Shown: positions 1-19,255, numbered from the stretch's first letter. The stretch: 64,000 bases of DNA from an uncultured Bacilli bacterium (GCA_934122395.1 CAKOWQ010000002.1:2595-66594); one strand, 5' to 3'. Program-made: numbers and translations. The notes: generated from the letters alone by a model not told the origin.

Positions 1-3000
1 ATAATTGTTTTTATACATTTGTCTATTTTGTTCCACTTCTTCTACTTCATCATCTAATATTTCATTAGTTTTCTCATTCATATTTAATAATCTATTAACT
101 TCATTTAATCTTTTTTGTTTATCTTTTAACTCTTCTTCTTGATTAAATGGTTTGCCAAACTCTAATTTTGCTTTTTCAAGTTGAGTTTTTATTGTTTCAA
201 GTTCTGTTTGAGAGTCTAATAAATGACTTGATATATTATCTAGTGCATTATCAATTCTTGTAATATTTCCAAGTTCACTATTTCCTAGATTAACTACAAC
301 AGTAGAGTTTCTTTTTAAGATTAAGTTATATTCTTTCATAAAAGCAAAGAACTTTAACTCCATTTTAAATCCTTTATATTCTCCTATCTCTTTTGTTTCA
401 TCACTTATAATACTTTTGCATTCATCAATTATCTTTGCTCCTGCATCTTGCTTTTCAGAATATGTTATTCCATTAATAATCATACCAGTAAAACTATCTT
501 CATTACTATAATTATTATTTAGATATTCAATATCATTTTTATAATTTTCTATTTCTTTTTCTAGTTCTTTTATTCTATTAGGATACTTCTTTTTTATTCT
601 ATCTTCTAAATCATATTGTTCATTTAGATAGCTTTGTTTTAAAAGTTTTAATTTTGATACTTGAGTATCTAACTCGGTTTTTTCTATTATTAGTGGATTA
701 CCAGCTGCAAGTGCTTTTATTTCTGCATAAGAAAGTGCTACTTCATCTATATCTTCAGCACTTCTAACAGGTGTTTTAGATGTCATTATTTGAGATATGA
801 ACTTCTGTTTATTCTCTACTAACTGATAAAGGTAAGCATCAAATGTTTTTTCTGTTACATATCTATAAATATATACTTCTTTATTTTGATTTCCTTGTCT
901 TATAATTCTTCCACTTCTTTGTATTAAATCACTAGGTCGCCATGGACAATCTAAATCATGAAGTGCAATTAATCTATCTTGACAGTTTGTTCCAGCACCC
1001 ATTTTAACAGTGCTTCCCATTAAAACTCTTACTTGTCCTGCTCTAACTTTTGCAAATAATGCTTGTTTTTGTAATTCTGTATTAGCATTATGGATAAATT
1101 CTATTTCATTTTCTGGTATTCCTTTTGCTACTAATTTGTTTTTTAAATCAGTGTAAGCATCAAATGAGCCATCACCTTTTGGTGTTGATAAATCGCAAAA
1201 TACTAATTGAGCAGATTTTTTATCTTTTGTTTCTTCCCATATTCTATAAATATTTTGAGAACAAGTATCTATTTTACTATTCTCATAATCTGGTAATAAT
1301 TCATTTATTAGTCTTTGATCTAGTGCTATTTTTCTACCCTCATTAGTGATTTTAAGCATATTATCTTCTTTTGAATCTACTTCTCTATTTCTTACTTTTT
1401 CAGCTCGTTCTCCTAATGAATTTACTAAATCCAGTTGTGTTTGACTTGGTTTTATTACTACATTTTCATAATTTGCTTTTGGTAATGGCAAATTTAATGT
1501 ATCAGATGTTTTAATATCAGCGACTTCTATAAACATATTCATTAACTCTGGTAAGTTATAAAACTTGGCAAATCTTGTTTTAGTTCTATAACCAGTTCCC
1601 TCTGGTGCTAATTCTATTGCAGTTACTGTTTCTCCAAAAGTAGATGCCCAAGCATCAAAATGTTGTAACCTACTTTCTATTAGTTTATCGTATTGTAAGT
1701 ATCTTTGCATAGTGTATAGTTCCACCATAGAGTTAGAAATTGGTGTTCCAGTCGCAAATACTATTCCTTTTCCACCAGTTATTTCATCTAAATATCTACA
1801 TTTCATAAACAAGTCACTAGACTTTTGTGCTTCCGTTTGAGCAATACCACCTACATTTCTCATTTTAGTATAAAGATATAAGTTCTTATAATAATGTGCT
1901 TCATCAACAAATAATCTATCTACACCTAACTCTTCAAAAGTAATTACATCATCTTTTCTTGATGTACTATTTAGATTTGCTAACTTTTTCTCAATAGACT
2001 TCTGTGTTTTCATCAATGCTTTAATACTAAATCTTTCTCCGTTATGATTTTTTAAATCCTCAATTCCTTTTAATGTATCTTGAAGTTGCTGCTCTAATAT
2101 GGCAACTTGCCTTTTAATGGACATTGGTATTTTTTCAAATTGAGAGTGTCCTATAATTACTGCATCCCACTCTCCAGTAGCAATTCTTGAACAAAACTTT
2201 TTTCTATTTGCTGTTTCAAAATCTTTTTTAGTTGAAACAAGTATATTAGCACTAGGATATAATTGCAAGAACTCACTAGCAAATTGCTCTATTATATGAT
2301 TAGGTACTACAAATAAACTTTTATTGCAAAGTCCTAATCTTTTACTTTCCATAGCACTTGCTACCATTTCAAAAGTTTTACCAGCACCAACTTCATGAGC
2401 TAGTAAAGTATTTCCACCATATAAAACTCTTGCTATTGCATTTACTTGATGTGGTCTTAATGTTATTTCTGGATTTATTCCATCAAATGTTATATGACTG
2501 CCATCATATTCTCTTGGAATTATTGCATTAAACTTTTCATTGTAAAGATATGTTAATCTTTCTCTTCTTTCTTGGTCATTCCATACCCAATCTTGAAATG
2601 CCTGTTTAATTTTATCTTGTTTAGCTTGAGCTATTGCTGTTTCTTTTTTATTTAATACTGCAACTTTTTTCCCATTTTCATCATAGTTATAATCAAAGAT
2701 TTTAGTATCTCTTAAATTAAGTGCATCTTCTATTAGTCTATAAGCATTAGCTCTATTTGTTCCATAAGTAGATGTTACAGCAATAGTATTCCTATCACAA
2801 CTTTTATTTTCAATGTTCCATTCACCAGTCATATCAGAATAATGTGCTTTTACATCTCTTCTAGCATAGATACTAGCATCTATTAACTCTAAAATAAAAC
2901 TAGTAATTATATCTTCTGGTATCCATGTTGCACCTATTCTTATACTTATTTCAGTAGGTGGAATATCTTTTGGAATAACTTTCTTTAAGTATTCTACATT

Positions 3001-6000
3001 GATTTGATAACTATTATCTTCAAATGCAAACTGTCTTGCCACTTTTAGTTTTTCACGAACATTACCAGATAAATACTCATCAGCAGTAACCCAATGATTA
3101 GAATTACCATATTCAGGTACTCTAAATATTTCTCCTTCTAGTTCTTCAAGCATTTTGTCTGTATCCAGTCCACATAACTTTTGCATATATGATATATCAA
3201 CTTTTGCTTTTTCTTGTATTGATACTATTAAAGCATCTCTTGCATTTTCAATAATTCTTTCTTTTGATTTCGGTTTAATTGTTCTTTTGTTAAATAAATC
3301 AGCTTTTCTTTTTAGATTTCCATTTTCATCTAAAACTTCAAGTGAACATAAAAGAAAATAACTTCCATCATTTGAAAATACACTAGCATTACCACGACTG
3401 TTGATAAGTCCATACTTTTTAACAAACTTATCATATAATTCGTTTAACTCTTTTTGTTTATCTTGTATTTCTTCATCACTAGCATTATCTAGCTGCAAGT
3501 TAATAATTTCTCTTGTTATATCTCTTAATTTAACTAAATTCTTAACTCTATTTTCAGCAGTTTCTGATAAGTTTTGAGGATACATTCTACTATTTTCTCT
3601 ATAATAAATTACATTATCAATTAAAGCATAAGAAAAGTTTTTTACATTTATATCAGCTTCAATAGATAAATCTTCATTATCTGCTATATCATCAATCTTA
3701 TAATCTTTTATTTCTGCTTTAACATTTGGTATTGCATTATTAAGCATTTCTTCTAAATTCATACCATCTACAGGAATACAAGCAGGTTCTTCTCCAAATG
3801 GTGTTGATATTAATTCCATTTTTCCTAGTATCATTTGTGGATTATCAACGAAATATTTATTTATTCTTAAATTATTTTCATCAGTATCAATATTTATCCA
3901 GTCTGGCATTATATCTGTAATTGAATCTCTTTTTTGAAGAAATATTATATCTGATGTAACTGTTGTTCCAGCACTATCTTTAAATACATTATTAGGTAGT
4001 CTTATAGCACCAATTAAATCTGCTCTGCTTGCTACATACTTTCTTACATCATCATTCTTTTTATCCATAAATCCTTGAGATGTAATAAATGCTATTATTC
4101 CTCCTGGTCTTACTTTATCTATGGCTTTTGCAAAAAAGTAATCATGTATTAAGAAGTTTCTCATATCATATTTCTTATCGCTTACAGGAATATTTCCAAA
4201 TGGAACATTTCCTATTGCAACATCAAAAAAAGAATTTGAATAGTTTACTTCTTCAAATCCTTTAACTGCGATAGATGACTTTTGATATAACTGTCTTGCT
4301 ATATTTCCACTAATTATATCTTTTTCTACTCCATATATTTTTAACTTATCATTATTCGGTAAAAGTCCAATAAAGTTTCCTATACCACAACCGGGTTCTA
4401 ATATATTCCCTTTATCAAGTCCCATATTGGATAAAGCTTTATACATTGCTTTAATTACCACTGGTGGTGTATAAAAAGCTGTTAAAGTTGATTCTTTTGC
4501 TTGAATATATTCTTCTTCAGTTAGAAGTTCTTTTAATTCATAATACTCATCAGTCCATCTATCTGGATCAAAAGCATCTGATAATCCACCCCAACCAACA
4601 TAATTAGAAAGTATTTCTTGTTCTTCACTTGTAGCATATCTATTTTCTTTCTCACACTTTCTTAAAACATTTATTGCTTTAATATTATTTCTATACCTTT
4701 CTTTTGGTGTTCCCACTCCTAAATAATCAGTATGTATCTTGTAATTTATTCTATCTTCTAATGGTACTTCTGGATGAAGAACATAACTAACTTCTCTTGG
4801 TTTTGTTTTAATAGGAACTTCTATTTTATCTTCTTTTAAATCATCAATTATTAAAGTATTATCTTTATTATTTATATCCTCTAATACTTCTTCTTTATCA
4901 ACACTTAAATCTAATACTTTATCATCAAAGTTATGATAATAAACATATATACTATCTGGAGTAACCCTTATAGCAAAGTCTTTATCTTTTTCAAGCATTT
5001 TAAATAGTTTATTACTTTCTATTTGCTCTTTTAACCTTAATTCACTTGTTTTATCAGTATTAAAATATGTAAAACTAGTATCGTGATTAGTATTATTACT
5101 ACTTTCTAATGATATTGTTAGATTTCTTTTTTTAGATTTAATATGTTCCCATTTTTCTAATTCTACTTTTTTTATTTCAAAACTATTTTCCCATATTGTA
5201 TCTTTAGAACACTTATTAAACATATCAACTATAACATCAGCAAACTCTTGCTCTTTAGTGGCAAACAAAGATAACTGTGCTTTCTCACTTCTTGGCATTA
5301 CTATTTTTTCTTTTTCAGTTGGTAATTTAGTTTCTTCCTTTTCATATTTATTAGCATAGTTTTTTAATTTATTATAATCTTCCTCATTTAATAATGTGGG
5401 AATATTATTATCATTATAATTAAATAATTCATCAAATATAAACTTATAAAACTCTTTACCATACCAAATATTATCATCATCCATTGCTATCAGATTATCT
5501 TTATCATCATACATCAATTCAATATCATTTATCTTGTATTTATTTAATACATCATAAAGTAATCCTATTTCTCCATCAGTTTTATCATACATATAAATAA
5601 CTGAAGAAAATTCATCATTAAATATTTGTTCTAACTTATCAAATAAAGCATCTGTTGATAATCCTTTATTAAACCAATCTGCCTCTACTATTTCGTTTTC
5701 CCAGGTATCCTCATTTGTTCTAGTTCCTAATTCTACTGTTGCTATTCCATTTATATAATGAAGTTCTACACAGTATAAATTAGTTTTAACTCTTGCTACT
5801 GTAAATGAGTTAGTATCATCTAAATCTTCTAAATTAGTTATTAACTCACTTTCAACAATATCTTTTCTACTATCTGAAAAAAGAATACTGTTGTTAGTAT
5901 TCTCTTGATTTAGTTGAAGATTAACTCCCTCATCACTATTTCCTCTGCTTGATTCTTCAAGTTGTTCATTAGTCCTGTCCACTTCATTGGATCTTCCATC

Positions 6001-7095
6001 TTCAAGTTCTCTGTTATATTCTCTTGTGCTATCAATTCTTTCATTATCAAGTTCACTCTCATCTCGGCTGTTGTATCTATCTCCAATAGGTGTTCTGTTA
6101 GTGTATCCTTGATTTTCATTTGCTCGTATAAAGGTTTCTTCTTGCTCTTTAGGTAATCCAACCTCATAAAACCATATTTCCCTATGTTGAAGTTTCTCTC
6201 TTTCACTTTCAAGTTCGGTATCTTGTAATCTCCTACTGTTTTGTAAGTTATCATTTACTTCACTCCTCTCCTTTAATTCATCTTTAGCATAAACTATATT
6301 TTTATCATTATCAAATGTACGAATTTTTTCTATTTCGCTTATTCTTATATTTTTTAATGTTTCATAAATATTAAGCAGTGTCATTTTACTTATATCACTT
6401 GTAGCAGTTCCTAAACTTACAACACTCTCTATATCTTGAAACATTATAATATCTTGAAAATCAGTATATAAAAACTCTTTATCAGCATTACCCACACATT
6501 TATTTATAAGCATATAAGCAATACTTTTTTGAAGTAAGTTTTTATATTTTTGAATAATTAAATCATTATCTATATTTATGAGTCTCGTATTTTCTTTATT
6601 ATCTAGTAAATAATCAATATAATCTGTTATGTTATCTTCCACTAAATTAGTTGCAACTGATTTTAAACTATCAATAAAAGTATCTTTATTTTCTAATTCT
6701 CCATATCTATTTTCTAGTGCCTCTACAACTTGATCTTGATAAGCTATTCCTACATTCCAAACTCTAACCTTTTTACCTTTTCTACCATACATACTTTGAG
6801 TATCTGATACATCCCATACATATCTTATAGATGGTTTGCCATACTTTTCAGTTATTAGTGCTATACCACTATGACCTTTTTTAATTATTCTATTTAATTT
6901 ACTATTCCAAGTATCATAACTAGCACAAGCTATAGCAGTTGGTCTTTGAGCATATATAAGTAATTGCTCATCAAAATCATACTTATAGTTCTTTGAGGCA
7001 CAACTTAAAAACGATTGCCATTTTCTTGAATCAGAGGTTATATCAGCAATCGTTTCATTATAGACTTCTTTAATATCTACTAATGTTGTAGCCAT
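1..7095 (-). CDS. Giant conjugative-element protein (C-terminus beyond window start, more than 2360 aa). Domains in order: ArdC-like N-terminal domain, acidic repeat linker, N6-adenine DNA methyltransferase, SNF2/DEXH helicase, coiled-coil tail.
   Basis: Continuous minus-strand reading frame from ATG at 7095 (SD GAGAGG 8 nt upstream) to position 1 with no stop found by manual translation. MTase motif I 'LEPGCGIGNF' (~4370-4400) and motif IV 'GNVPFG' (~4195-4212). Helicase motif I 'AHEVGAGKTF' (~2385-2400), motif II 'LFVDEAHYYKN' (~1895-1915) and C-terminal helicase motifs. N-terminus 'YDTWNSKLNRIIKKGHSGIALI' resembles ArdC-N ssDNA-binding domains. Absent from the ORF track only because no stop codon lies in the window. 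Confidence 0.7.
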   Translation of the reverse strand, partial: MATTLVDIKEVYNETIADITSDSRKWQSFLSCASKNYKYDFDEQLLIYAQRPTAIACASYDTWNSKLNRIIKKGHSGIALITEKYGKPSIRYVWDVSDTQSMYGRKGKKVRVWNVGIAYQDQVVEALENRYGELENKDTFIDSLKSVATNLVEDNITDYIDYLLDNKENTRLINIDNDLIIQKYKNLLQKSIAYMLINKCVGNADKEFLYTDFQDIIMFQDIESVVSLGTATSDISKMTLLNIYETLKNIRISEIEKIRTFDNDKNIVYAKDELKERSEVNDNLQNSRRLQDTELESEREKLQHREIWFYEVGLPKEQEETFIRANENQGYTNRTPIGDRYNSRDESELDNERIDSTREYNRELEDGRSNEVDRTNEQLEESSRGNSDEGVNLQLNQENTNNSILFSDSRKDIVESELITNLEDLDDTNSFTVARVKTNLYCVELHYINGIATVELGTRTNEDTWENEIVEADWFNKGLSTDALFDKLEQIFNDEFSSVIYMYDKTDGEIGLLYDVLNKYKINDIELMYDDKDNLIAMDDDNIWYGKEFYKFIFDELFNYNDNNIPTLLNEEDYNKLKNYANKYEKEETKLPTEKEKIVMPRSEKAQLSLFATKEQEFADVIVDMFNKCSKDTIWENSFEIKKVELEKWEHIKSKKRNLTISLESSNNTNHDTSFTYFNTDKTSELRLKEQIESNKLFKMLEKDKDFAIRVTPDSIYVYYHNFDDKVLDLSVDKEEVLEDINNKDNTLIIDDLKEDKIEVPIKTKPREVSYVLHPEVPLEDRINYKIHTDYLGVGTPKERYRNNIKAINVLRKCEKENRYATSEEQEILSNYVGWGGLSDAFDPDRWTDEYYELKELLTEEEYIQAKESTLTAFYTPPVVIKAMYKALSNMGLDKGNILEPGCGIGNFIGLLPNNDKLKIYGVEKDIISGNIARQLYQKSSIAVKGFEEVNYSNSFFDVAIGNVPFGNIPVSDKKYDMRNFLIHDYFFAKAIDKVRPGGIIAFITSQGFMDKKNDDVRKYVASRADLIGAIRLPNNVFKDSAGTTVTSDIIFLQKRDSITDIMPDWINIDTDENNLRINKYFVDNPQMILGKMELISTPFGEEPACIPVDGMNLEEMLNNAIPNVKAEIKDYKIDDIADNEDLSIEADINVKNFSYALIDNVIYYRENSRMYPQNLSETAENRVKNLVKLRDITREIINLQLDNASDEEIQDKQKELNELYDKFVKKYGLINSRGNASVFSNDGSYFLLCSLEVLDENGNLKRKADLFNKRTIKPKSKERIIENARDALIVSIQEKAKVDISYMQKLCGLDTDKMLEELEGEIFRVPEYGNSNHWVTADEYLSGNVREKLKVARQFAFEDNSYQINVEYLKKVIPKDIPPTEISIRIGATWIPEDIITSFILELIDASIYARRDVKAHYSDMTGEWNIENKSCDRNTIAVTSTYGTNRANAYRLIEDALNLRDTKIFDYNYDENGKKVAVLNKKETAIAQAKQDKIKQAFQDWVWNDQERRERLTYLYNEKFNAIIPREYDGSHITFDGINPEITLRPHQVNAIARVLYGGNTLLAHEVGAGKTFEMVASAMESKRLGLCNKSLFVVPNHIIEQFASEFLQLYPSANILVSTKKDFETANRKKFCSRIATGEWDAVIIGHSQFEKIPMSIKRQVAILEQQLQDTLKGIEDLKNHNGERFSIKALMKTQKSIEKKLANLNSTSRKDDVITFEELGVDRLFVDEAHYYKNLYLYTKMRNVGGIAQTEAQKSSDLFMKCRYLDEITGGKGIVFATGTPISNSMVELYTMQRYLQYDKLIESRLQHFDAWASTFGETVTAIELAPEGTGYRTKTRFAKFYNLPELMNMFIEVADIKTSDTLNLPLPKANYENVVIKPSQTQLDLVNSLGERAEKVRNREVDSKEDNMLKITNEGRKIALDQRLINELLPDYENSKIDTCSQNIYRIWEETKDKKSAQLVFCDLSTPKGDGSFDAYTDLKNKLVAKGIPENEIEFIHNANTELQKQALFAKVRAGQVRVLMGSTVKMGAGTNCQDRLIALHDLDCPWRPSDLIQRSGRIIRQGNQNKEVYIYRYVTEKTFDAYLYQLVENKQKFISQIMTSKTPVRSAEDIDEVALSYAEIKALAAGNPLIIEKTELDTQVSKLKLLKQSYLNEQYDLEDRIKKKYPNRIKELEKEIENYKNDIEYLNNNYSNEDSFTGMIINGITYSEKQDAGAKIIDECKSIISDETKEIGEYKGFKMELKFFAFMKEYNLILKRNSTVVVNLGNSELGNITRIDNALDNISSHLLDSQTELETIKTQLEKAKLEFGKPFNQEEELKDKQKRLNEVNRLLNMNEKTNEILDDEVEEVEQNRQMYKNNY

Positions 7096-7114
7096 TTAAT
7101 TTACCTCTCTTTCT

Positions 7115-7438
7115 TTATTTTTTTTGTTCTCTATTTTCAATTAACTTACTATAATAATCTTCTACATTATCATTTTTTTCAGCTCGTAATAATAATTGCC
7201 AAATCATATCACTTGCTTCGTTAGGAAAAAATCTTACATCTACAAATTCTATATCATCATTATTAACTCTTGGTACTGAATATGTAAGTAATTTATTCTT
7301 TAATTTTTCTGCAGTTGTTGAAAACTTTTCATCTTCAATATTCATCTTTATATTAAAATCTAAAATACCAACTAATTGATTAAATAAATCTTTACATAAT
7401 GATAATTGTGTAGATGGTGTTCTTGTTTGATGTGGCAT
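7115..7438 (-). CDS. Hypothetical protein (107 aa), leading-region small ORF.
   Basis: ORF track. Tightly packed between the sortase cluster and the giant MTase/helicase, same strand, near-overlapping neighbours. No recognisable motif. Confidence 0.4.
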   Translation of the reverse strand: MPHQTRTPSTQLSLCKDLFNQLVGILDFNIKMNIEDEKFSTTAEKLKNKLLTYSVPRVNNDDIEFVDVRFFPNEASDMIWQLLLRAEKNDNVEDYYSKLIENREQKK

Positions 7439-7743
7439 TATATCTTCACTCCTCTCCTAATTGTTTTTGGGAATATTACTAAACAATCATCTATTTCTTC
7501 ACTTTTGTTACTATTCCCTAATAATTCTCCTCTAATTTCAATGTATGTATTTTTATTTATTTCTGGGAAATCATTTATACAAGGTGTAAATAATATAAAT
7601 GATATATAGTTATTAACTCTTTCAATCTTATTATCATTTATAACTTTCATCTTTGTAGGTATTTCTAAAATAAATCTTGTAAATAATTCATTATCAAATA
7701 CATCTTTCTTTATAACTTTACCTGATATTTTTATTTCATTCAT
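7438..7743 (-). CDS. Hypothetical protein (101 aa), possibly an OB-fold/SSB-like protein.
   Basis: ORF track. N-terminus 'MNEIKISGKVIKKDVF..ELFTRFILEI' resembles the N-terminal strand pattern of plasmid SSBs (MN.v.L.GrL...). Start overlaps the stop of the upstream ORF (ATGA-type coupling). Confidence 0.3.
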   Translation of the reverse strand: MNEIKISGKVIKKDVFDNELFTRFILEIPTKMKVINDNKIERVNNYISFILFTPCINDFPEINKNTYIEIRGELLGNSNKSEEIDDCLVIFPKTIRRGVKI

Positions 7744-7967
7744 CTTTCATCACTCCTATCTTTATCTTTATTTAACGACACTTGTTCTACTACTTTACTT
7801 TCTTTTATTTCTACATCTATATTTTTAGATAGTTTATCTTTTATATCTTTAACTGTAATACTATCTAATGTATCTTTTAATATTCTTCTAGCTTCTTCTT
7901 CATTTTCTGCTACTACAGTTATTTTCATTCTTTCGTATAAATTAACATTAAACTCATAATTATTCAT
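7740..7967 (-). CDS. Hypothetical protein (75 aa).
   Basis: ORF track. 4-nt overlap with the downstream ORF, consistent with an operon of small leading-region genes. Confidence 0.35.
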   Translation of the reverse strand: MNNYEFNVNLYERMKITVVAENEEEARRILKDTLDSITVKDIKDKLSKNIDVEIKESKVVEQVSLNKDKDRSDER

Positions 7968-8208
7968 TTTCTTTTCCTCCTTTTATTTCTTCGCTATTAC
8001 TTAAAAAAGCAATTATTTGTCTATTCTTAATTGCTTTCTTTAAATCTAATAAAATAATTATTTCATTACCATTTACATCTTGTATTTTTGTTAAATCATC
8101 TAATTTTATATTTAAAATATCTTTTTCAGTTTTAAATCCTGCTTTAAATATTTTCTCTAATACTTTTGTTATTTGACTTAAATTATACTTATTCATAGTT
8201 TTCCTCAC
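7960..8208 (-). CDS. Hypothetical protein (82 aa).
   Basis: ORF track. 8-nt overlap with the neighbouring ORF. No recognisable motif. Confidence 0.35.
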   Translation of the reverse strand: MRKTMNKYNLSQITKVLEKIFKAGFKTEKDILNIKLDDLTKIQDVNGNEIIILLDLKKAIKNRQIIAFLSNSEEIKGGKENE

Positions 8209-8866
8209 TTTCTAGTTCTAAAATATAAACTATTTGCTTTGTTTTATCAGTTTGACTACAAGTAATTAAAGTTAAAGTATTCTTTTTATTATCTCTATGA
8301 ATTACAACTTTTCCTGTCTTATCAACATCATATTTTCCTGCTACTTTATATGTATATTTAATATTATTAAAATAAACATAGGCAACATCATCATTGCTTA
8401 ATTTATATAGATTTTTAAAATATGATATATAACTATTTCCAGAATGAGCAGCAATTATAAGATTTCCATTTTTAACATCTGGCATATCACTACCCTTTAT
8501 TACTTGTAAGTTTTTATTAACATTATTACCTTTATCATTGATATTTAAAAATCCTCTTTTTACATTTATTTTAGGTATTTCAAGAACTCCAATATAACTA
8601 TAATTTGGTGTTTTCTTTTCTTCTTGTTTTGGTTGTTCTTGAGTATCTTCATCATCAATATCAACTTTTATTACTTCAACTTCTTCTTTACCAATATTTA
8701 AAAACTCTTGGGCTTTTTTATAATCTCTTAGTTCTATGTAATAGTTATAACCAATTCTACCTATATACATAAAAGCACCAGTTAAGAATATGAAAGAAGC
8801 AACTAGTTTAATTAGTTGCTCCCTTTTATTTACATTTTTATTTTCTTTTGTTCTTTTTAGAAACAT
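8189..8866 (-). CDS. Sortase (cysteine transpeptidase).
   Basis: N-terminal TM anchor. Active-site His region 'LIIAAHSG' and catalytic Cys motif 'TLTLITC' (TLxTC). Sits immediately downstream of, and overlapping, its likely substrate gene. Confidence 0.75.
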   Translation of the reverse strand: MFLKRTKENKNVNKREQLIKLVASFIFLTGAFMYIGRIGYNYYIELRDYKKAQEFLNIGKEEVEVIKVDIDDEDTQEQPKQEEKKTPNYSYIGVLEIPKINVKRGFLNINDKGNNVNKNLQVIKGSDMPDVKNGNLIIAAHSGNSYISYFKNLYKLSNDDVAYVYFNNIKYTYKVAGKYDVDKTGKVVIHRDNKKNTLTLITCSQTDKTKQIVYILELESEENYE

Positions 8867-11411
8867 AAAGAAATACCCCCATTCCTACTACCATACAAGT
8901 AACACTAATTACTGTATATAGTTTACTGTTATTAGCCATAGTGTTTGGTACTTCAACTATTTGTTCATTAGTTAAATTAGCTTTAACTATTTCTCCATTT
9001 TCTTTGATTTCAAACTCTATAACTTCATCTGTTATTTGGTAACCAGTTGCACTTTCTTTTTCAATAATATGTCCTTTTCCTATAAATAAATCTTTAATGA
9101 TAATTTGACCATTTTCATCAGTAAGTCCAGAGAATATTAAAGTAGATTCTATTGTTCCATCTTCTAGTTCTTTATCTGAATAGATTTCTATTAAAGTATT
9201 AGGAATTGGTTTACCACTAACTAAATCTGTTTTAGTAAATTCTAAAGTTCCTTTTTTATAATAGTTTTGTAATTCTACATCTTTAACTATTTCTTTAGTA
9301 TATTGATCTTTATACTTTAACTCAAAAGTATATATTTTTTCATCTAACACATGATTATTATCTGTTGATTTCTCTTTTATATAGTATTTTCCAAGCTCAA
9401 GCCCATCAATAGTTGCCTTACCATCAGCAGTAATAACAGTTGTTATCAATTCATCTTTTGAATATTTTTTCTTACCACTAACATAAATATCCTCGTTAGC
9501 ATAAAGTTCTAATTCAACTTCGCTTAATAATATCTTTTTGTATCCAAAAGTATTATTATCTATAATTAGCTTTTCTCCATATTTAGTGATATTTAATTTT
9601 CCTTTAACTCTTTCATTCGCAAACTTAACTACTAATAAGGCACCGTAATCTTTATCAACTAGTATCTCGCTACCTTCTCCAATATGGATTGGCATTGCTT
9701 CACTATTCCAAACATAACCATCTAAGACATGATTTTCTACTTCTTCTAAAAGAAAATCTCCAACTAGATTTGATGGTGTTATAATCACTCCATTTTCATC
9801 TGTTTCATATTCACATACTTTTTTAGCAGTTGGATATGTTATTGTTTGACAAACATATTCATTAGTTTTAGCATCTTTTATTTTAAACTTAATACCTGCT
9901 TTAGTTATTACTTCGCCTGTTTCTTTATCAGTTTTAATAACTTTTAATTTTGCCTCAATAGGAGCATTGCTAACTAATTTATAAATATCACTACCAGTAT
10001 TTTCATTTACTTCAACTTCAAAATCTTTTACCTTTTCATAATCTGGTGTTGAATTAATTTGTTTAAAAGTATATTTACCATAAGGTAAAGTTATTTTTGC
10101 ATATCCTTTATCATCAGTTGTGATAGTATCTGCTAAACAAGTATTACTGTCTTTCAATAATGAATTAGAATTACAATTATTTAAGTAAATCTCAAATGTT
10201 ATATTAAGCTCGCCTTTTAATATTCCAGTTGCTCCACTTGCAAATGTTTTAAATAATGTAACATCTGCTTCTATAACTTTTTCATATACTTTCACATTAG
10301 CAAGTAAATTGTCTTTATCTACTACAAATGAATATTTATTGTTTGTATCTAAAGTATATCCTTTACTAGGTGATAGTTCTTTTAAATAAAACTCCCCTAA
10401 TGCTGGTAAATAATCACTTATACCATATCCATTTTCATCTGTAGTAATTTCTCCAACCTTTTCGTTATTCAAGTTATATATACCATACTTTGCACCACCT
10501 AGCGTGGCGTTTCCTTGTGGAATATTATTTTTAGTTTCACTATCCACTTTATTTATCTCTACTCTGCCACCAACTGACTCTAACTCTATACTCTTAACGA
10601 CTGGGTCAGCATTTCCAACTCTCATAACATTTTGAGAATGGTTAGAATAATAAACTATTGGAGTTACATCATAATAAGATGGTTTTTTAACTAAATTAAC
10701 TTTAACATTTTCTATTGAATTAGATGTGATTGTTAAAGTGTTTCCATTTATACTTGCTACACCATTTTCTACTGATGAAATACTAAATTGACTTAATACT
10801 CCATTTGTATCTGTAAAATCCAGACTTTTACCTATTGGTAATTTAACTCCGTCAATATTAAAACTTGGTTTAGTATAATGTTTATTTAATAAATCTTCCA
10901 TCTCTGCTATTTCACTAGCAAATTTATTTGGTAAGTCATTTCCATTTAGTGTATCTGTAAATACAATTCTTGATGTAGGTACTGCTGTTCTCCATATCAT
11001 AACCTGAGTAATCACATACCATTTATTATTTGAATGGTCATATCCATTTTCTTTATATTGATAACCATAATATGCTAAAAGTGATATTCTTTGCCATTGT
11101 TCTTCTGTCATATTAAGATATACAGCAAAATCACTTCTAGCTATTTTATAATAAGGCAAATTATTATCTATATCTACATAAGGTTGTAGGCAATAGACGA
11201 ATTTATTATCCTCACTTCTTCTTATAAATCCTGCTTGTTGATACTTAATGTATCCATCTTCTCTGTATTTTTTAATAAAAATATTTGCTATCTTTTCAGA
11301 TGGCCAAATAGCTTGACCTTTATATTCTTCAGCATTTACTTTTGTAATGCCAAAAAATATCGTAAAAAAAAGTATGCCGATTAAAGCATACAAAGTCTTT
11401 GTTTTATTCAT
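8838..11411 (-). CDS. Cell-wall-anchored surface adhesin with Cna-B-type (prealbumin-like) repeat domains and a C-terminal sorting signal.
   Basis: Signal peptide 'MNKTKTLYALIGILFFTIFFGITKVNA'. Repeated 'TDENG..' Cna-B-like modules (e.g. 'TDENGYGISDYLPALGEFYLKELSPSKGYTLDTN', 'GLTDENGQIIIKDLFIGKGHIIEKESATGYQ'). C-terminus 'VPNTM' followed by a hydrophobic segment and 'KKNKRK' tail, a classic sorting-signal architecture with a non-LPXTG motif. Confidence 0.7.
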   Translation of the reverse strand: MNKTKTLYALIGILFFTIFFGITKVNAEEYKGQAIWPSEKIANIFIKKYREDGYIKYQQAGFIRRSEDNKFVYCLQPYVDIDNNLPYYKIARSDFAVYLNMTEEQWQRISLLAYYGYQYKENGYDHSNNKWYVITQVMIWRTAVPTSRIVFTDTLNGNDLPNKFASEIAEMEDLLNKHYTKPSFNIDGVKLPIGKSLDFTDTNGVLSQFSISSVENGVASINGNTLTITSNSIENVKVNLVKKPSYYDVTPIVYYSNHSQNVMRVGNADPVVKSIELESVGGRVEINKVDSETKNNIPQGNATLGGAKYGIYNLNNEKVGEITTDENGYGISDYLPALGEFYLKELSPSKGYTLDTNNKYSFVVDKDNLLANVKVYEKVIEADVTLFKTFASGATGILKGELNITFEIYLNNCNSNSLLKDSNTCLADTITTDDKGYAKITLPYGKYTFKQINSTPDYEKVKDFEVEVNENTGSDIYKLVSNAPIEAKLKVIKTDKETGEVITKAGIKFKIKDAKTNEYVCQTITYPTAKKVCEYETDENGVIITPSNLVGDFLLEEVENHVLDGYVWNSEAMPIHIGEGSEILVDKDYGALLVVKFANERVKGKLNITKYGEKLIIDNNTFGYKKILLSEVELELYANEDIYVSGKKKYSKDELITTVITADGKATIDGLELGKYYIKEKSTDNNHVLDEKIYTFELKYKDQYTKEIVKDVELQNYYKKGTLEFTKTDLVSGKPIPNTLIEIYSDKELEDGTIESTLIFSGLTDENGQIIIKDLFIGKGHIIEKESATGYQITDEVIEFEIKENGEIVKANLTNEQIVEVPNTMANNSKLYTVISVTCMVVGMGVFLYVSKKNKRK

Positions 11412-11458
11412 ATTTATCTTTCCTTTCTTTTTCCAAAATAAAAAGACACTTTATGTGC

Positions 11459-12025
11459 CTAAAATAATTTAATCATTTCTCCTAAATATCTACCAGATGC
11501 ACTGTTTATTGTAGAACAAGAAAATCCCATTCCACTTTCTTCACCATACTTAATACAAGCATTAAAACAGTTTTCCTGACTTCCATACTTTTCAATAGAA
11601 AAATCTACTTTAGCCCAACTCCATGCAGGTTTATTGTAATAATCATCTTCACTCATTCCAAGTTCTTCCCAAGCTGTCATTTCTTTCTTTTCTTCTTGTT
11701 TTGGTTCTTCAATTACATTTTTTTCAACCTGTTTTTGTTCTGGTTGAGTAACTTTTTCTTCTTTTTGCACAGTACTTGTTTTTTGATCTGGTATATTTTT
11801 TTCTTTTTCCACAGTATTTGTTGATAAATCCTCTGCTTTTGAAATTGGTTCTTCTATTTTTTCTTCTTTTTGAGTATTAATTTCAACTTTATCTTGTGAT
11901 TCATGCTCAGCTTGATTTGATTTTGTTGTATCTGATTCCGGTACTGATTTTCCATTAAATGCACTCCCTAGTCCAACAACCAGACTTACAACTACAAAAG
12001 CTATAAAAATTCGTATTAGTTTCAT
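11459..12025 (-). CDS. Secreted Glu/Lys-rich protein with a Cys-containing C-terminal domain, function unknown.
   Basis: Signal peptide 'MKLIRIFIAFVVVSLVVGLGSA'. Imperfect E/K-rich repeats. Own promoter-like ATGACA-17-TATGTT and RBS AAGAGGAG upstream (12026-12090). Confidence 0.5.
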   Translation of the reverse strand: MKLIRIFIAFVVVSLVVGLGSAFNGKSVPESDTTKSNQAEHESQDKVEINTQKEEKIEEPISKAEDLSTNTVEKEKNIPDQKTSTVQKEEKVTQPEQKQVEKNVIEEPKQEEKKEMTAWEELGMSEDDYYNKPAWSWAKVDFSIEKYGSQENCFNACIKYGEESGMGFSCSTINSASGRYLGEMIKLF

Positions 12026-12173
12026 CTCACATCACTCCTCTTCTTTGTCTTAACATAGCATATTTTAACTATTTTGTCATATCTACTAATTATTTTTTTT
12101 CAGTTAGTAATAATAGTTAGTATTATTTTTAGGGGAGATTGTAAGAGGGGGCTTTTTGGCAAATATACTCCCA

Positions 12174-13139
12174 CTATCTTTCATTGCTTTCTTTTTCTCT
12201 CTTTTTTTGCAACCACCTCCCATAAAAACTAACTGCTTTAACAACATAATCTTCCTTTTCTTCATTTGTTGTAAGATTAGTTGGGAGTATATTATTTAAT
12301 TTGTCCATATTAACTTTTAGAGTTTGTATTTGATTAGGTTTTTCTTGCTCTAAAATAGTTTCCATATACTCTCTTGTAAGTTTATTATCTTTACTTAATC
12401 TTTTAAAATCTTGGGCTTGTGATAATGATGGAGTACAAGCAAAACATTCCATTATATCTAAAAGTTCTTTTTGTTCTTCTTCTTTTAAATAAGATATTTC
12501 AACTGCTGGACTTATTGCCATACTTGGAGATAATTTCAAAGCATCATTATCTACCATTTGAAGTATTTGTGGTATTAGTTCAGTTAGTCTAATATATCTA
12601 TGAACTTGTCTAGCACTTTCGTTGTTTTCCATACCTATTATATCAACAGTTTTTAACTTGTCGCCAACTTGGCGAGAAGTTGCAACTTTACCTTGATGAC
12701 TTAATGCTTCCATTTTTAATTTATAAGCAAATGCTTTCTCGCTTGGTAGTATCTTTTCTCTTTGCAAATTACTATCAACCATTATAATAGTTGCCTCATC
12801 ATCAGATAAATCTCTTACTATACAAGGTATTGTTTCTAATCCTGCTAACTCACTAGCAAACTTTCTTCTATGACCAGAAATCATTTCATATTTGCCATTT
12901 TCTTTTGGTCTAACTAATGTCGGCACTAATACGCCATTTTCACTAATACTTTCTGCCATTTGTTTCATATCTTCATTATCTATTACTTTAAATGGGTGTT
13001 TAGGGAAGTCATCTATATCATTTAAACTTATATTTACTACTTTTTCTTTTAATTTATCATCTCTCTCTTCTTGTGTTGAAAACAGGTCATCATCTAGTAA
13101 AATCTTTGGTAGAGGCATTTTTGTTTCTTTCTTTACCAT
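12174..13139 (-). CDS. parB: ParB-like partition protein (ParB/Spo0J N-terminal domain).
   Basis: 'GHRRKFASELAGLETIPCIV' ParB box II-like motif. Located directly downstream of parA with a short overlap. The true start may be the internal Met (MPLPKILL, ~13118). Confidence 0.7.
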   Translation of the reverse strand: MVKKETKMPLPKILLDDDLFSTQEERDDKLKEKVVNISLNDIDDFPKHPFKVIDNEDMKQMAESISENGVLVPTLVRPKENGKYEMISGHRRKFASELAGLETIPCIVRDLSDDEATIIMVDSNLQREKILPSEKAFAYKLKMEALSHQGKVATSRQVGDKLKTVDIIGMENNESARQVHRYIRLTELIPQILQMVDNDALKLSPSMAISPAVEISYLKEEEQKELLDIMECFACTPSLSQAQDFKRLSKDNKLTREYMETILEQEKPNQIQTLKVNMDKLNNILPTNLTTNEEKEDYVVKAVSFYGRWLQKKREKESNER

Positions 13140-13920
13140 TCTCCATTACCTCCTTTGCAAATAAGGTATATGAATCTGCTACCTTACTATTTTTATCATA
13201 AGAGAAAATACTTTCTCCATGAGATGTTGATTTTGCTACATTTACTGCCATAGGTATTTGAGTATTATATATCTTTACTTTACTTCCATAACTTTCTTGA
13301 AGTTCATATCTTACTTGATTAGGTAAAGTTGTTCTCTTATCTACTAGTGTAAGCAAAACACCATCTACCATCAAGTTTGGGTTTATTTGTTTTCTCACTC
13401 TTGAAATTGTTTGTAAAAATTGTCCCATACCTTTCGCAGCTAAAAACTGTGTTTGTACTGGAATAATTACTTTATCGGCACAAGCAAGAGCATTTATTGT
13501 TATCATACCTAAACTAGGCATACAATCTATCAGTATATAATCATACTTATCTTTATATTTAGATAATGTATTTCTCATAACACTTTCTCTACTCATTACA
13601 TTAACAAGTCCTACCTCTAATTGTGATAAATCTAAATTAGATGGTATTAAATCCACTTCTTCATTATGATGCAATATTACATCATCTATGTTTATATTGT
13701 CATCTCTAATAGTGGCACTCATTACATCTGCTAATGTAGTCTGTATTTTATCTAAATCAGTCCAACCCATGCAAGTAGTTAAATCTCCTTGTGGATCAGC
13801 ATCTACTAGTAATACTTTTTTTCCTCGTTTTGCTAATGCTACACCCAAATTAAAAGTGGTAGTTGTTTTACCAACTCCACCTTTTTGATTTGCAATAGCA
13901 TATATCTTACAATTATCCAC
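13090..13920 (-). CDS. parA: ParA/Soj-family partition ATPase (plasmid type, no N-terminal HTH).
   Basis: Deviant Walker A 'KGGVGKTTTT' and 'LLVDADPQGDLT'. 276 aa. Confidence 0.85.
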   Translation of the reverse strand: MDNCKIYAIANQKGGVGKTTTTFNLGVALAKRGKKVLLVDADPQGDLTTCMGWTDLDKIQTTLADVMSATIRDDNINIDDVILHHNEEVDLIPSNLDLSQLEVGLVNVMSRESVMRNTLSKYKDKYDYILIDCMPSLGMITINALACADKVIIPVQTQFLAAKGMGQFLQTISRVRKQINPNLMVDGVLLTLVDKRTTLPNQVRYELQESYGSKVKIYNTQIPMAVNVAKSTSHGESIFSYDKNSKVADSYTLFAKEVMENGKERNKNASTKDFTR

Positions 13921-14196
13921 TTTTTTCTCTCCTTTCTTAATATTTTAGTTTCGCAAAATCAAATAAAAAAAGAGCATATTTTCTCAAAATATTTAGCTCT
14001 AATATTTTTAAAATGCCCGTATTATATGACTTCAACGATTATTCTTGTATGTACCAGTTTTATAATTATCGTCCATGCCCTGCATCTACTACAATTTTAT
14101 AATCCATTCTATATTCCTCCTCGAAATATTTTATGATATTTATCTATATTGTTGTATAAAAAAAGAACAATTCAATATCATTGTTCCAAAAGATTG
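13921..14196 (-). promoter_or_regulatory. parA upstream control region with four AATATTT/AAATATTT palindromic repeats (candidate centromere/operator), and a Rho-independent terminator of the upstream small ORF (GGAACAATGATATTGAATTGTTC + T-run, ~14165-14200).
   Basis: Repeats 'tcaaaatatttagc', 'ctaatattttta', 'cgaaatattttatg' and 'taatattttag' within 200 nt. Inverted repeat GAACAAT...ATTGTTC followed by a T-run on the minus strand. Confidence 0.3.
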
Positions 14197-14385
14197 TTAA
14201 TCATCATCCTCATTATAATAATCGTCATCTTCCAAATCTTCTTCCTCAAAATTCCAACTATCATAATTTCCCTTATTCAATTCATCTGTTTGCAAGAAGT
14301 CTAAATCATTATTCCCATCCAGTTTATCCTTTTGATTTTCGGAGTCATCTAATAATCCTGACAAAAACGATAATATAATACCCAT
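14197..14385 (-). CDS. Small, highly acidic protein (62 aa) with a hydrophobic N-terminus.
   Basis: Strong RBS AAAGGAGGAG 6 nt upstream of the ATG. Sequence 'MGIILSFLSGLL' followed by a D/E-rich tail (EEEDLEDDDYYNEDDD). Own terminator downstream. Confidence 0.45.
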   Translation of the reverse strand: MGIILSFLSGLLDDSENQKDKLDGNNDLDFLQTDELNKGNYDSWNFEEEDLEDDDYYNEDDD

Positions 14386-14424
14386 GCTCTCCTCCTTTAT
14401 TATATTAGTATTATACTCTATAAA

Positions 14425-14450
14425 TATAAAAAGAACAATTTCTTGTTCTT
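14425..14450 (-). terminator. Rho-independent terminator of htrA.
   Basis: AAAGAACAAGAAATTGTTCTTTTT on the minus strand immediately after the htrA stop codon. Confidence 0.6.
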
Positions 14451-15559
14451 TAATCAGTTGATTTTGATAACGTTACAGTAGTTGTATGTTCTTTTCCACC
14501 CCTATTATAAGTAATAGTTATCTTATCTCCAACATTATATTTATATAAAACATATTTTAAATAAGCAGCATTCATTACTTCTTCTTTATCAATTTTAGTA
14601 ATTACATCACCTTTTTGTAATCCTGATTTTGATGCTCCAGAACCATTTACTACTTCGACTACAACAATACCACTTGTAGCATTATTTGGAATAGTAATAC
14701 CATAACTTGCTAAAGTTCTAGTATCGCTTGTATTTAATAGTTTTATTCCTAACATTGGCCTTTCAATTGTCTGAGATTTTTCTAGTTCTTCTACATGAGC
14801 CATGGCATCTTCAATCTTAATAGAGAACCCCATTCCTTCAATACTACTATCTACTAATTTCATTGAATTAACTCCAATTACTTCGCCATTCGAATTCATT
14901 AGTGGCCCCCCACTATTTCCAGGATTTATAGCTGCGTCAACCTGAGATACTTTCATAATCCAATCTGATTGTGAATTAACGCTAACAGTTACTAAACGGT
15001 CAATACCAGAAATAATACCGCTTGTAACAGTATTATAATATTCTTCACCCACTGGAGAACCTATAGTAAAGATAGTATCACCCAACTTTAATTTTTCAGT
15101 ACTACCAATAGTGGCAACTTTCAACACTTCTGATACTGGAATACGTAATACCGCAATATCTAAATATTCATCTCCACCTAATTTAGTAGTTTCTATTTCT
15201 TTTCCATTTGTCATAAGTACTGTTAATTTTGTTGCGTTTTCAACTACATGTTCATTAGTCATAATATATCCATATTTTTCATCAGTTTTATATACAAATC
15301 CACTACCAGTACTTGCTAATTTACTTCCTTGATAGTTTTTTATCATAACTACTGCATCATAAACTTTTTCAACAGCAGCACTTATTCCTGTATTATCTAC
15401 TATAACTTTATTTTCACAACTAGTATATTGGCATCCTAGTGCTCCAGCTTGATTACTACTACCTTTGCCAAATGGATTAGTAATTACTACATACATTACT
15501 CCTCCACCTAATAAAAATGCACACAAGACAAGTAGAAAATTAATTATTCTTCCACGCAT
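14450..15559 (-). CDS. htrA: HtrA/DegP-family serine protease (trypsin-like domain plus PDZ), membrane anchored.
   Basis: N-terminal TM anchor. Catalytic His 'MTNEHVV', Asp 'DIAVLRI' and Ser 'NPGNSGGPL'. C-terminal PDZ-like region. Confidence 0.85.
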   Translation of the reverse strand: MRGRIINFLLVLCAFLLGGGVMYVVITNPFGKGSSNQAGALGCQYTSCENKVIVDNTGISAAVEKVYDAVVMIKNYQGSKLASTGSGFVYKTDEKYGYIMTNEHVVENATKLTVLMTNGKEIETTKLGGDEYLDIAVLRIPVSEVLKVATIGSTEKLKLGDTIFTIGSPVGEEYYNTVTSGIISGIDRLVTVSVNSQSDWIMKVSQVDAAINPGNSGGPLMNSNGEVIGVNSMKLVDSSIEGMGFSIKIEDAMAHVEELEKSQTIERPMLGIKLLNTSDTRTLASYGITIPNNATSGIVVVEVVNGSGASKSGLQKGDVITKIDKEEVMNAAYLKYVLYKYNVGDKITITYNRGGKEHTTTVTLSKSTD

Positions 15560-15565
15560 TTGTTA

Positions 15566-16504
15566 TCACTCCTTTTCAATGTTAGCAATATTTTCCCAAT
15601 TTTCTGGAAATCCCATTCTATCTAATACTTTAGATATTGGTATAGAATATAAATTATAATTTAAATTATCTAATGCATGATCTATTTCAATAACCATATT
15701 TTTTATTTCAGTATCTGTTAATAAGTGTTTCATTATAATTATTAAAGCAAATAAATCGTTTTTACCATATTTGTATTCACCATCTACTTTTTCAATATTT
15801 AATAGATTATGATATATGGTATTACCTATAATTTTTTGTGTTTTGTTTTCAAACAATATATCTTCGTGTGCACATAAATTACGATAGTTAGATAAGATTG
15901 GTAAATATATACCTAAAGCATTAATATCCATACCATATATTTCAGCAATTGCAATTCTATCATCTATCCTTAGTATAGAGTATAATTCACTAACTATTCC
16001 AAAAGATAATACTTTAACTAATACCCATAACGGAATATATCCATAATTACTTAGATAGTGAACAGTAGCAGAATGTTGTCTACCATTAACATGAATTTGT
16101 CTTTTCATCTTCTTTATTAAATCATTTACTTGTCTTGATTTTTCAGGACTAGTATCAAAGTTTTTAGGCTTTAAATAATCATGTTCTTTGTAACCATATT
16201 TTTTAGATAAACGATAAGATATAATAGACTTTAGATTGTTTTCCACAATTAATAAATTTTTAAAAATAATATTACGGAATTGGCGGTCAAACAAAAATAA
16301 ACTATACAACTCCTCGAAAGTAGTTCCTTCTATAAATTTTTTAGGATCATTACTACTCATAAATAAATGTCTATATCCACTTAAGAAAAAGTAATTCTCT
16401 CTTAATAGTACTTCTTTTGCATAGACTTCGTCATTAATTACCAAGCCCTTATGCTTTAAGATTTCTATTTGTTCATCTAAAGTTTTGAACTGCTTTGTCT
16501 TCAT
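15566..16504 (-). CDS. Abortive-infection protein, Abi_2 (AbiD/AbiF-like) family.
   Basis: N-terminus 'LDEQIEILKHKGLVINDE...FLSGYRHLF' and conserved 'PLWVLVKVLSFGIVSELY ... YRNLCAHEDILF' (RNxxAH motif) typical of PF07751-type Abi proteins. Confidence 0.65.
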   Translation of the reverse strand: MKTKQFKTLDEQIEILKHKGLVINDEVYAKEVLLRENYFFLSGYRHLFMSSNDPKKFIEGTTFEELYSLFLFDRQFRNIIFKNLLIVENNLKSIISYRLSKKYGYKEHDYLKPKNFDTSPEKSRQVNDLIKKMKRQIHVNGRQHSATVHYLSNYGYIPLWVLVKVLSFGIVSELYSILRIDDRIAIAEIYGMDINALGIYLPILSNYRNLCAHEDILFENKTQKIIGNTIYHNLLNIEKVDGEYKYGKNDLFALIIIMKHLLTDTEIKNMVIEIDHALDNLNYNLYSIPISKVLDRMGFPENWENIANIEKE

Positions 16505-16649
16505 ATTCTCACCTATTGTAAATTATAGCACATAACGTATGAAATTACATGAAAAATTTATGAAAATATTGTAATTAATTTGTGTTATTTTTTTGATTTT
16601 TCATGAATTAAATATTGCTTATTTTTTCATAATAGTTATAGGTGATACT

Positions 16650-18130: not shown

Positions 18131-18271
18131 TTATATCACCTAATAAATAATATGTTTTTTATTCATTAAAAATATAAAAGTAAATAATAATATATTTAAA
18201 GTATTGCATATATTTGTTGAAACAAAAAAGCCAAAGAAAAGGAAGATAATAATATCTTCCATAAAACAATC

Positions 18272-18697: not shown

Positions 18698-18710
18698 CAG
18701 TTATTCCTCC

Positions 18711-19142: not shown

Positions 19143-19255
19143 AATTTTTCTCCTTTACTTAAGTCCAGCTTCCCACGGCCAAACTTATGTGGGGATTTCA
19201 ATGTACCGATTAGAATTATACTAAAATCGTGCTTATTTGTCAACGAATTTCTATA
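19143..19255 (-). promoter_or_regulatory. sigma-A promoter (TTGACA-18-TATAAT, plus-strand coordinates 19215-19244) and structured L13 leader preceding rplM-rpsI.
   Basis: Minus-strand sequence TTGACAAATAAGCACGATTTTAGTATAAT, then a GC-rich leader 'CCCCACATAAGTTTGGCCGTGGGAAGCTGG' and RBS AAGGAG before the ATG. Confidence 0.55.

Follow-up and report, generated by a model that had tools for sequence, protein, structure and literature searches.

A 14-kb block from an uncultured Bacilli bacterium as the parA-proximal part of a probable integrative and conjugative element inserted in an Amidase_3 gene

The stretch of DNA analysed here comprises 64,000 nucleotides of an uncultured Bacilli bacterium (GCA_934122395.1, CAKOWQ010000002.1:2595-66594) and is referred to as the window in its full length. 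Positions 1-14075 most probably (about 0.88 in our estimate, based on sequence comparison) represent the parA-proximal 14 kb of an integrative and conjugative element (ICE) of approximately 40 kb, which is inserted in a chromosomal Amidase_3 gene and for which a large serine recombinase encoded at its far end would serve as the integrase. Judged from these sequences, the element combines the features by which an ICE is recognized: a polymorphic insertion, an integrase with attachment (att) sites at both ends, and genes encoding a relaxase, a coupling protein and a VirB4-type ATPase. The comparison of genomes established the insertion in the GHGG codons of amidase genes, the presence or absence of the element within the species and a full set of predicted conjugation genes in the species. 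An earlier note on the same DNA, made from the window's sequence alone (the original prediction), had already taken the region for an end portion of an integrated conjugative element extending beyond position 1, and the leftward extension proposed there as a check indeed led to a relaxase, genes of a type IV secretion system (T4SS) and an integrase. The element is of an ordinary kind and overturns nothing in current understanding. The annotation of the locus is corrected, as htrA, Abi_2 and a small acidic open reading frame (ORF) are host genes and the element starts inside a broken amidase gene.

Right boundary of the element and its host flank

Public assemblies were searched for contigs encoding an HtrA protein identical to that of the window. 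Sixteen of them carry the block and six are without parA and everything beyond it, which provided the insertion-free genomes that the original prediction had suggested for comparison. The unoccupied contigs retain htrA, Abi_2 and the acidic ORF (L025, L027-L029) and match the window with 99.98% identity from position 25559 down to 14073, from where they continue into an amidase ORF. Viewed from the other side, a copy of the same element in another genomic context (L008) shows homology from 14082 leftwards. With a slash marking the junction, the breakpoint in the unoccupied contigs reads ATGGATTATAAAATTGTAGTAGATGCAGGGCATGG/TGGTGAAGATCCGGGAGC and lies at the start of an Amidase_3 protein (MDYKIVVDAGHGGEDPGA); at the same point the window reads GGGCATGG/ACGATAATTATAAAACTGGT. 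On this sequence comparison the right boundary of the element is placed at 14073-14077, inside codons 11-12 (GHGG motif) of the Amidase_3 gene, a gene that comes after htrA and the acidic ORF. It had been predicted between 14386 and 14450, and the actual boundary thus lies 310-375 bp further left, in the truncated amidase gene.

The amidase ATG is found at 14107-14105, and the 5' remnant of the chromosomal target gene (14066-14107, minus strand) encodes MDYKIVVDAGHG followed by an out-of-gene stop, with host DNA reaching down to 14076. The right end itself is marked by the pentamer CATGG (14073-14077, minus strand), which is common to attL, attR and the empty site and includes the predicted crossover dinucleotide CA at 14077-14076. 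Flanking repeats, proposed as a further check, exist. On the side of the element follows a stretch (13939-14075, minus strand) that comprises the element-side att arm (P' arm) and a non-coding leader, including the inverted-repeat arm TAAAACTGGT at 14062-14053 and copies of AATATTT; this stretch is particular to the serine-recombinase variant of the element. A scan of 13700-14500 revealed no terminator, and promoters at chance level; the predicted RNA fold of the attL leader was no better than that of shuffled sequences (z -0.38). Iterons of the sequence AATATTT had been postulated upstream of parA, a claim that proved weak: The heptamer occurs 109 times in the window at 87 expected occurrences, and a repeat scan upstream of parA detected no iteron family, just short AT-rich matches. 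Three copies are located in the element (13939-14007), within a 137-bp stretch absent from the commoner variant, and one more lies outside the element at 14124-14131.

Since the acidic ORF, htrA and Abi_2 are present in contigs lacking the block, they are host genes. The acidic ORF encodes 62 highly acidic amino acids (14197-14385), is located downstream of htrA and is kept in occupied and unoccupied genomes; it had been thought to open the block. No match to it was found in Pfam, NCBIfam or PHROGs.

Far end, serine recombinase and attachment sites

Beyond the giant gene at the left edge of the window, relatives with 93-95% identity continue with a helix-turn-helix (HTH) gene, DUF6664, DUF3848 and a DUF3991/Toprim_2 primase-like gene. 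A conserved non-coding stretch of 185 nt and variable cargo follow in these relatives. After the cargo, the gene order is NikA/MobC-like, PF03432 relaxase, DUF3801, two unknowns, VirD4-type coupling protein, a small membrane protein, VirB6/TrbL_2, several unknowns, DUF4314, PrgI, VirB4-like ATPase and CHAP hydrolase. The far end in the window's species was traced via TnpV, whose gene comes after the amidase fragment in contigs lacking the element. Contigs of the L047 type carry T4SS genes, then an HTH gene, HU, a sigma-like gene and a 699-aa recombinase, all upstream of TnpV. The far half in the window's species comprises MobC, the PF03432 relaxase, DUF3801, the coupling protein (PF02534 and PF12696), TrbL_2, DUF4314, PrgI, the VirB4-like protein, CHAP and the recombinase, and the full MobC-to-VirB4 module is located on contigs carrying the exact recombinase (L064). 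Relaxase, coupling protein and VirB4-type ATPase were found in L064 (window's species), in L021, in L019 and in L037 taken together with L057. In the window's species, at least 36 kb of the element are accounted for. The whole element, 42,199 bp in length, is contained in contig k141_52631 of another genome, where it is inserted in a different amidase-LysM gene: the amidase 5' end is followed by parA through Toprim, 11 cargo genes, MobC, relaxase and DUF3801, continuing with PrgI, VirB4, CHAP, the recombinase and finally the amidase 3' end with its LysM repeats.

The far-end recombinase, which is encoded outside the window (L047, L057), is a large serine recombinase of 699 aa with the domains PF00239, PF07508, PF13408 and PF14287, each above cut-off, and the catalytic motif YVRLS. 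Its stop codon is separated from the junction by 30 nt (L047). All 22 contigs with the exact recombinase, belonging to the window's species, adjoin the rest of the same amidase gene. The attachment sites could be read from these contigs and the window: attL (window) is GCAGGGCATGG/ACGATAATTATAAAACTGGT, attR (L047, same species as the window) is ACCAGTTTTAAGAGTATCAACCACATGG/TGGTGAAGATCC with the flank beyond 100% identical to the empty site, and the empty site (L048) is GCAGGGCATGGTGGTGAAGATCC. Combined, attL and attR rebuild the empty site exactly. The deduced attP, ACCAGTTTTA-AGAGTATCAACCA-CA-TGGACGATAATTA-TAAAACTGGT, consists of perfect 10-bp inverted repeats (ACCAGTTTTA and TAAAACTGGT), 13-nt spacers and a central CA, with one arm in the window (14062-14053) and the other in L047. 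The predicted circle junction is ACCAGTTTTAAGAGTATCAACCACATGGACGATAATTATAAAACTGGT and the predicted restored attB is GATGCAGGGCATGGTGGTGAAGATCC. In contig k141_52631, attL (GGTCA-TGGACG) and attR (ACCACA-CGGTGG) differ directly after the CA, with T in the former and C in the latter. Because CA is the sole identity between attB and attP in this contig, the sequences place a 2-bp crossover at CA, in the centre of the inverted-repeat attP. The recombinase was seen to adjoin four distinct amidase remainders, HGGEDPGA, HGGSDPGA, HGGDDPGT and HGGTDSGA, the last of which is encoded by CACGGTGGTACGGATTCTGGTGCT (translated by hand). In the proposed mechanism, the recombinase would join attP to the His codon of the D-x-G-H-G-G motif in peptidoglycan amidase genes and thereby integrate the element as well as excise it.

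Among solved structures, the recombinase matched solely the catalytic domain of TnpX (2MHC, E 2.5e-6), and it is less than 40% identical to anything in the plasmid collection. With TnpX of Tn4451 and TndX of Tn5397 it shares the Resolvase, Recombinase, Zn-ribbon and DUF4368 architecture, the YVRLS motif, a 2-bp crossover flanked by imperfectly symmetric sites and the position of its gene at the extreme end of the element. TnpX and TndX cross over at GA dinucleotides, whereas the target here is formed by the codons for the conserved GHGG motif in Amidase_3 genes and the exchange maps to CA.

Several observations weigh against an ICE that extends from the window to this far end. Wherever a contig encodes a giant or Toprim protein identical to the window's, it ends about 300 nt past the Toprim gene, in a cargo ORF which is presumably DUF3781-like; the far-half contig has its 5' end in a different cargo ORF, and the two halves are unjoined in the window's species. 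The far end (L047/L064) is tied to the window by the same target gene and the complementary junctions, with no read-through contig. As the contigs break after the Toprim gene, the continuity of the window's copy is probable rather than directly seen. The VirB4-like protein scored 27.1 bits with PF12846, at a cut-off of 27.5, and is above the cut-off for P-loop_TraG (38.6 bits). No topoisomerase family was found among the genes called across L037, L057 and L064; topB is a backbone gene of Faecalibacterium members of the Tn1549 family and not a defining criterion of that family (PMC12084326). For the partition set, ParA and ParB were matched, and neither a canonical parS in the element nor an iteron family was found. 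The composition check of the original prediction also did not set the block apart, as GC content (0.275 vs 0.288) and tetranucleotides (correlation 0.979) are close to those of the chromosome. From the missing link between the window's half and the conjugation module one could conclude that the window's copy is a non-mobile remnant in which only parA to Toprim survived, and L014, a complete-looking metagenome-assembled genome (MAG) with a copy truncated after the Toprim gene, demonstrates that such truncations occur. We regard this as unlikely: in the 22 same-species contigs, the remainder of this very amidase gene is adjoined by a fitting far end that includes the recombinase and the complete conjugation module, genomes that are nearly identical differ in whether they carry the insertion, and no ORF is disrupted, each of the ten element ORFs in the window being as long as its counterpart in relatives. 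Furthermore, a repeated contig break at one point is expected from a repeated or variable cargo gene.

Other readings of the block have even less in their favor. The acidic ORF adjoins parA in the same orientation, which would suit an element that starts at this ORF and ends at 14386-14450 or, if htrA and Abi_2 count as cargo, still further right. The three genes are, however, present at 99.98% identity in the block-free contigs, and homology ends at 14073 in these and at 14082 in the same element elsewhere, with the junction inside the amidase reading frame, which makes such an extent highly improbable. An integrated conjugative plasmid or a prophage instead of an ICE is just as improbable. 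A ParA/ParB pair is typical of plasmids, and a distant match (72%) to the helicase region exists on an Anaerococcus plasmid, but no replication initiator or phage structural genes were found in any locus, no near match exists among 72,556 plasmids, and the PHROGs matches are confined to an HTH regulator and the Toprim primase. It also speaks against this reading that the element has a serine recombinase of its own, with attL and attR defined within a gene of the chromosome, and the plasmid alternative of the original prediction was dismissed in favor of an ICE with a serine-recombinase att system.

For the role of the block during transfer the balance is even. It may be the leading region, which enters the recipient first, beginning with the Toprim primase, the methylase-helicase and the OB-fold protein and later followed by the adhesin and ParAB. 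All genes from parA to Toprim point to the sole conserved non-coding stretch (185 nt, two hairpins, TTGTTA-N-TGATATAAT) before MobC and the relaxase, a geometry that agrees with the rule that anti-defence, methylase and single-stranded DNA-binding protein (SSB) genes lie on the T-strand (PMC11541004); the content of primase, methylase-helicase and SSB-like genes fits as well. If the origin of transfer (oriT) is located in the 185-nt stretch and the relaxase enters last, the block would be on the leading side and in T-strand orientation. Neither oriT nor the nicked strand was identified, however, and for the MOB types that prevail in Firmicutes a different behavior is possible (PMC11541004). 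In some copies, mobC is separated from the Toprim gene by as much as 7 kb of cargo, and adhesin, sortase and ParAB represent donor-side or maintenance functions rather than establishment.

The 185-nt stretch (L030:19443-19640, with an equivalent in L004-L021) is situated 2.5 kb left of position 1 and is kept in all copies. It contains two perfect hairpins, CTAAGAC-TTAT-GTCTTAG and GCAAATGT-N7-ACATTTGC, furthermore GGGAAACCC followed by a T-run and a promoter-like pair, TTGTTA and TGATATAAT. Cargo is inserted directly after it, and in L019 it is located directly upstream of mobC. It is a candidate for oriT, a terminator or a cargo promoter.

Genes of the block

Eleven co-directional ORFs on the minus strand were found in 1-14385, all at the positions given in the original prediction. 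Their existence and placement stood; as the acidic ORF is chromosomal, ten of the eleven are element genes. The predicted partition genes were confirmed: parA (13090-13920, minus strand) encodes a ParA/Soj-type ATPase with an AAA_31/CbiA match and the Walker A motif KGGVGKT, and overlaps by 50 nt with parB (12174-13139, minus strand), whose product contains a ParB_N domain (aa 33-126) and matches TIGR00180 with 90.4 bits (cut-off 58.45). From knowledge of the families, ParA and ParB may serve to retain the circle after excision or to position it. The 3' end of parB is flanked by a perfect inverted repeat of 12 nt (AATATACTCCCA and TGGGAGTATATT, at 12162-12173 and 12282-12293, spacing 108 nt), which could be a ParB binding site or a chance occurrence.

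The secreted protein named in the original prediction corresponds to a 188-aa ORF (11459-12025, minus strand) with an N-terminal hydrophobic segment, a Glu/Lys-rich linker and a Cys-containing C-terminal domain, and is thus described as secreted or membrane-anchored; no family match was obtained in PHROGs, NCBIfam or Pfam. The adhesin with Cna-B domains and its sortase were recovered as well. The adhesin (857 aa, 8838-11411, minus strand) comprises a signal peptide, a thioester domain (TED, 34.8 bits, cut-off 22), after it five SpaA/Cna-B-type stalk domains and a C-terminal sorting signal, VPNTMAN, with a transmembrane segment and KKNKRK. The predicted thioester pair consists of Cys74 in YCLQ (at 73) and Gln136 in QVMIW (at 136), which would form the bond. 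A match to the class II TED adhesin BaTIE (6FWV, E 5e-15) covers aa 649-813 of the stalk, outside the TED, and therefore does not bear on a class II assignment. The sortase (8189-8866, minus strand) has an N-terminal membrane anchor and the motifs HSG at aa 141 and TLITC at aa 199.

A TED adhesin of plasmid pLS20 is required for efficient conjugation (PMC8092201). Like this protein, TIEpLS20, the adhesin of the window has a signal peptide, an N-terminal TED with Cys and Gln and a Cna-B-type stalk, and is encoded in a conjugative element; the match to BaTIE is a further likeness, since TIEpLS20 has been modelled on BaTIE. Unlike TIEpLS20, which has neither a sorting signal nor its own sortase and functions without sortases (PMC8092201), the adhesin of the window has a C-terminal sorting signal and an adjoining sortase gene. 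The sortase would anchor the thioester adhesin on the donor surface, and the adhesin may stabilize mating pairs, as described for pLS20 (PMC8092201).

The four tiny ORFs of the original prediction are present at 7115-8208 (minus strand). They encode 82 aa (7960-8208, minus strand; 78 aa from an ATG at 8196), 75 aa (7740-7967, minus strand), 101 aa (7438-7743, minus strand) and 107 aa (7115-7438, minus strand). PHROGs, NCBIfam and Pfam yielded nothing for three of the four, among them the 82-aa and 107-aa ORFs. For the 75-aa ORF there were sub-threshold matches, DpnD/PcfM-like (19.4 bits, cut-off 25) and Icd-like (17.2 bits, cut-off 25). The 101-aa product has a predicted OB fold of the SSB/PriB type and is without the acidic C-terminal tail of canonical SSBs.

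The giant gene (1-7095, minus strand) has 2365 codons in the window, and its last two codons and the stop lie just left of it. After addition of two residues seen in relatives, the full-length protein of 2367 aa was an exact match to an entry of the protein collection (P0121), which confirms the methyltransferase/helicase of more than 2360 aa in the original prediction. The methylase is of the Eco57I N6-adenine type (30.7 bits, cut-off 25.3, with the segment scanned alone), with motif I GCGIG at aa 902 and motif IV NVPF at aa 963 (about nt 3976-4411), and is directly followed by an SNF2/SF2 helicase at aa 1544-2068 (about nt 892-2466) with GAGKT, DEAH and QRSGR and matches to SNF2-rel_dom, ResIII and Helicase_C. 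This corresponds to the architecture of the DarB-like dyad. No family match was found for the N-terminal ~890 aa. An ArdC-N-like N-terminus was not supported by Pfam. Homologues have precomputed matches to PF28553 and PF28554. A PDB sequence search with the protein gave no match, and the best matches in the collection of 72,556 plasmids, including the Anaerococcus plasmid, reach 72% and cover the helicase part only.

Methylase-helicase dyads of the DarB type have been proposed to counter restriction on behalf of conjugative elements (PMC5512222). They occur as a variable gene in ICEs of the Tn1549 family (PMC12084326), and 'darB' genes are reported from a conjugative element of Streptococcus, where they lie in its leading region (PMC11541004). 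The giant protein resembles the dyad of phage P1 DarB (PMC5512222) in the N6-adenine methylase with C-terminal SF2/SNF2 helicase, the size above 2000 aa and the location on a mobile element; it differs from DarB-type polyvalent proteins in that the first ~890 aa contain no ArdC-N or other recognizable domain. By analogy, an anti-restriction role is predicted for it. Together with the OB-fold single-stranded DNA binder and the other small proteins, it would protect and establish the incoming DNA against restriction by the recipient (PMC5512222, PMC12084326).

Relationship to known elements, variants and target genes

In its protein domains, the conjugation module is similar to that of the Tn1549 family under the definition of PMC12084326, with scores of 126 bits for the relaxase (PF03432) and, for the coupling protein, of 207 bits (PF02534) and 114.6 bits (PF12696). 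This likeness is one of domain criteria, and the placement of the relaxase in MOBP7 is putative. Shared with the family is the B-type organization (PMC12084326) with PcfB/DUF3801, VirD4, a small membrane protein, VirB6/TrbL_2, PrgI, a VirB4-like ATPase and a cell-wall hydrolase, and likewise the variable methylase-helicase 'dyad' protein and the abundance in gut metagenomes. Tn1549 itself uses a tyrosine transposase of low specificity; the element described here has a large serine recombinase, while copies of the commoner variant have a tyrosine integrase adjoining parA. A DUF3991/Toprim_2 primase-like gene is present instead of a topoisomerase III gene, of which none was seen. Compared with the family, the hydrolase is of the CHAP type, ParAB, the TED adhesin and the sortase are carried in addition, and the hosts are uncultured Bacilli with small genomes.

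Most public copies belong to the commoner variant, in which a 425-aa tyrosine integrase gene is located 27 nt upstream of parA and the element follows secA. Similarity of the window to this variant extends beyond the start of parA by 18 nt, up to 13938. Once the window's variant is circular, its serine recombinase gene is joined to parA through attP and the block sits directly downstream of the recombinase gene; in the commoner variant, the tyrosine integrase holds the equivalent place. The two variants thus differ in their recombination module, with a clean exchange between a tyrosine integrase and a serine recombinase at a single position of the circular map. In the truncated copy of L014, the Toprim gene is followed (L014:11794-13867) by unrelated integrases, one a tyrosine recombinase of 331 aa and the other truncated, and by genes of the chromosome (LysR, aminotransferase, ATP-grasp).

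According to GTDB records, the hosts are uncultured MAGs labelled 'Bacilli', 'Tenericutes' and 'Clostridium sp.', the two largest contigs being 1.2 and 1.5 Mb in length. The element is thus a very widespread ICE of uncultured gut Bacilli with small genomes, and one of its proteins is unchanged in thousands of assembly blocks: a protein identical to the product of the 107-aa ORF is listed in 3327 blocks of the metagenome collection.

The ICE targets the D-x-G-H-G-G motif, its crossover falling on CA in the His codon, and was found in at least five different amidase genes. We lean slightly towards the view that Amidase_3 genes are a general landing pad across species, on whose conserved catalytic-motif codons unrelated serine-recombinase elements have converged. 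If this is true, the recombinase of the ICE tolerates degenerate attB arms and yet stays site-specific, which would explain its spread across species. The targeting of the amidase motif is a small and concrete addition to the known target choices of ICEs. Since attP is fully defined and a natural family of attB sites exists in a conserved motif, the recombinase can be tested as a tool for site-specific integration.

Further elements were observed in amidase genes. A second, restriction-modification island (L048-L056, locus about 9890-20351) is located in Amidase_3 genes in at least six genomic contexts and, in the window's species, beyond the far end of the ICE. It encodes TnpV, two unknowns, a D12 methylase, a HinfI-like endonuclease, Mrr, AAA_13, HTH_36 and a 550-aa serine recombinase. 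This island always joins a second conserved motif of these amidases, SNHxNAGGG/DSQSVTNV followed by a stop (DNA GGnGGTGG/CGATAGTCAAAGTG), and in the window's species ICE and TnpV island are stacked in one amidase gene. A third element (L052:9590-9760), encoding an AAA ATPase, a ClpP-like protein and proteins of 1162 and 719 aa, ends with TTTAGCACATGG/AGGAAGTGATCC at the same GHGG position of an amidase gene, and its terminus resembles that of the ICE. The window itself contains a cwlD-like amidase gene (17444-18130) with an unoccupied GHGG site, GATCCTGGACATGGCGGTAGGGATCC, near 18010 on the minus strand, which resembles the attB sites of the ICE. Far from the element, two T-box leaders are located on the minus strand at 31760-31940 and 42577-42760; they are the sole Rfam matches at gathering score in the window.

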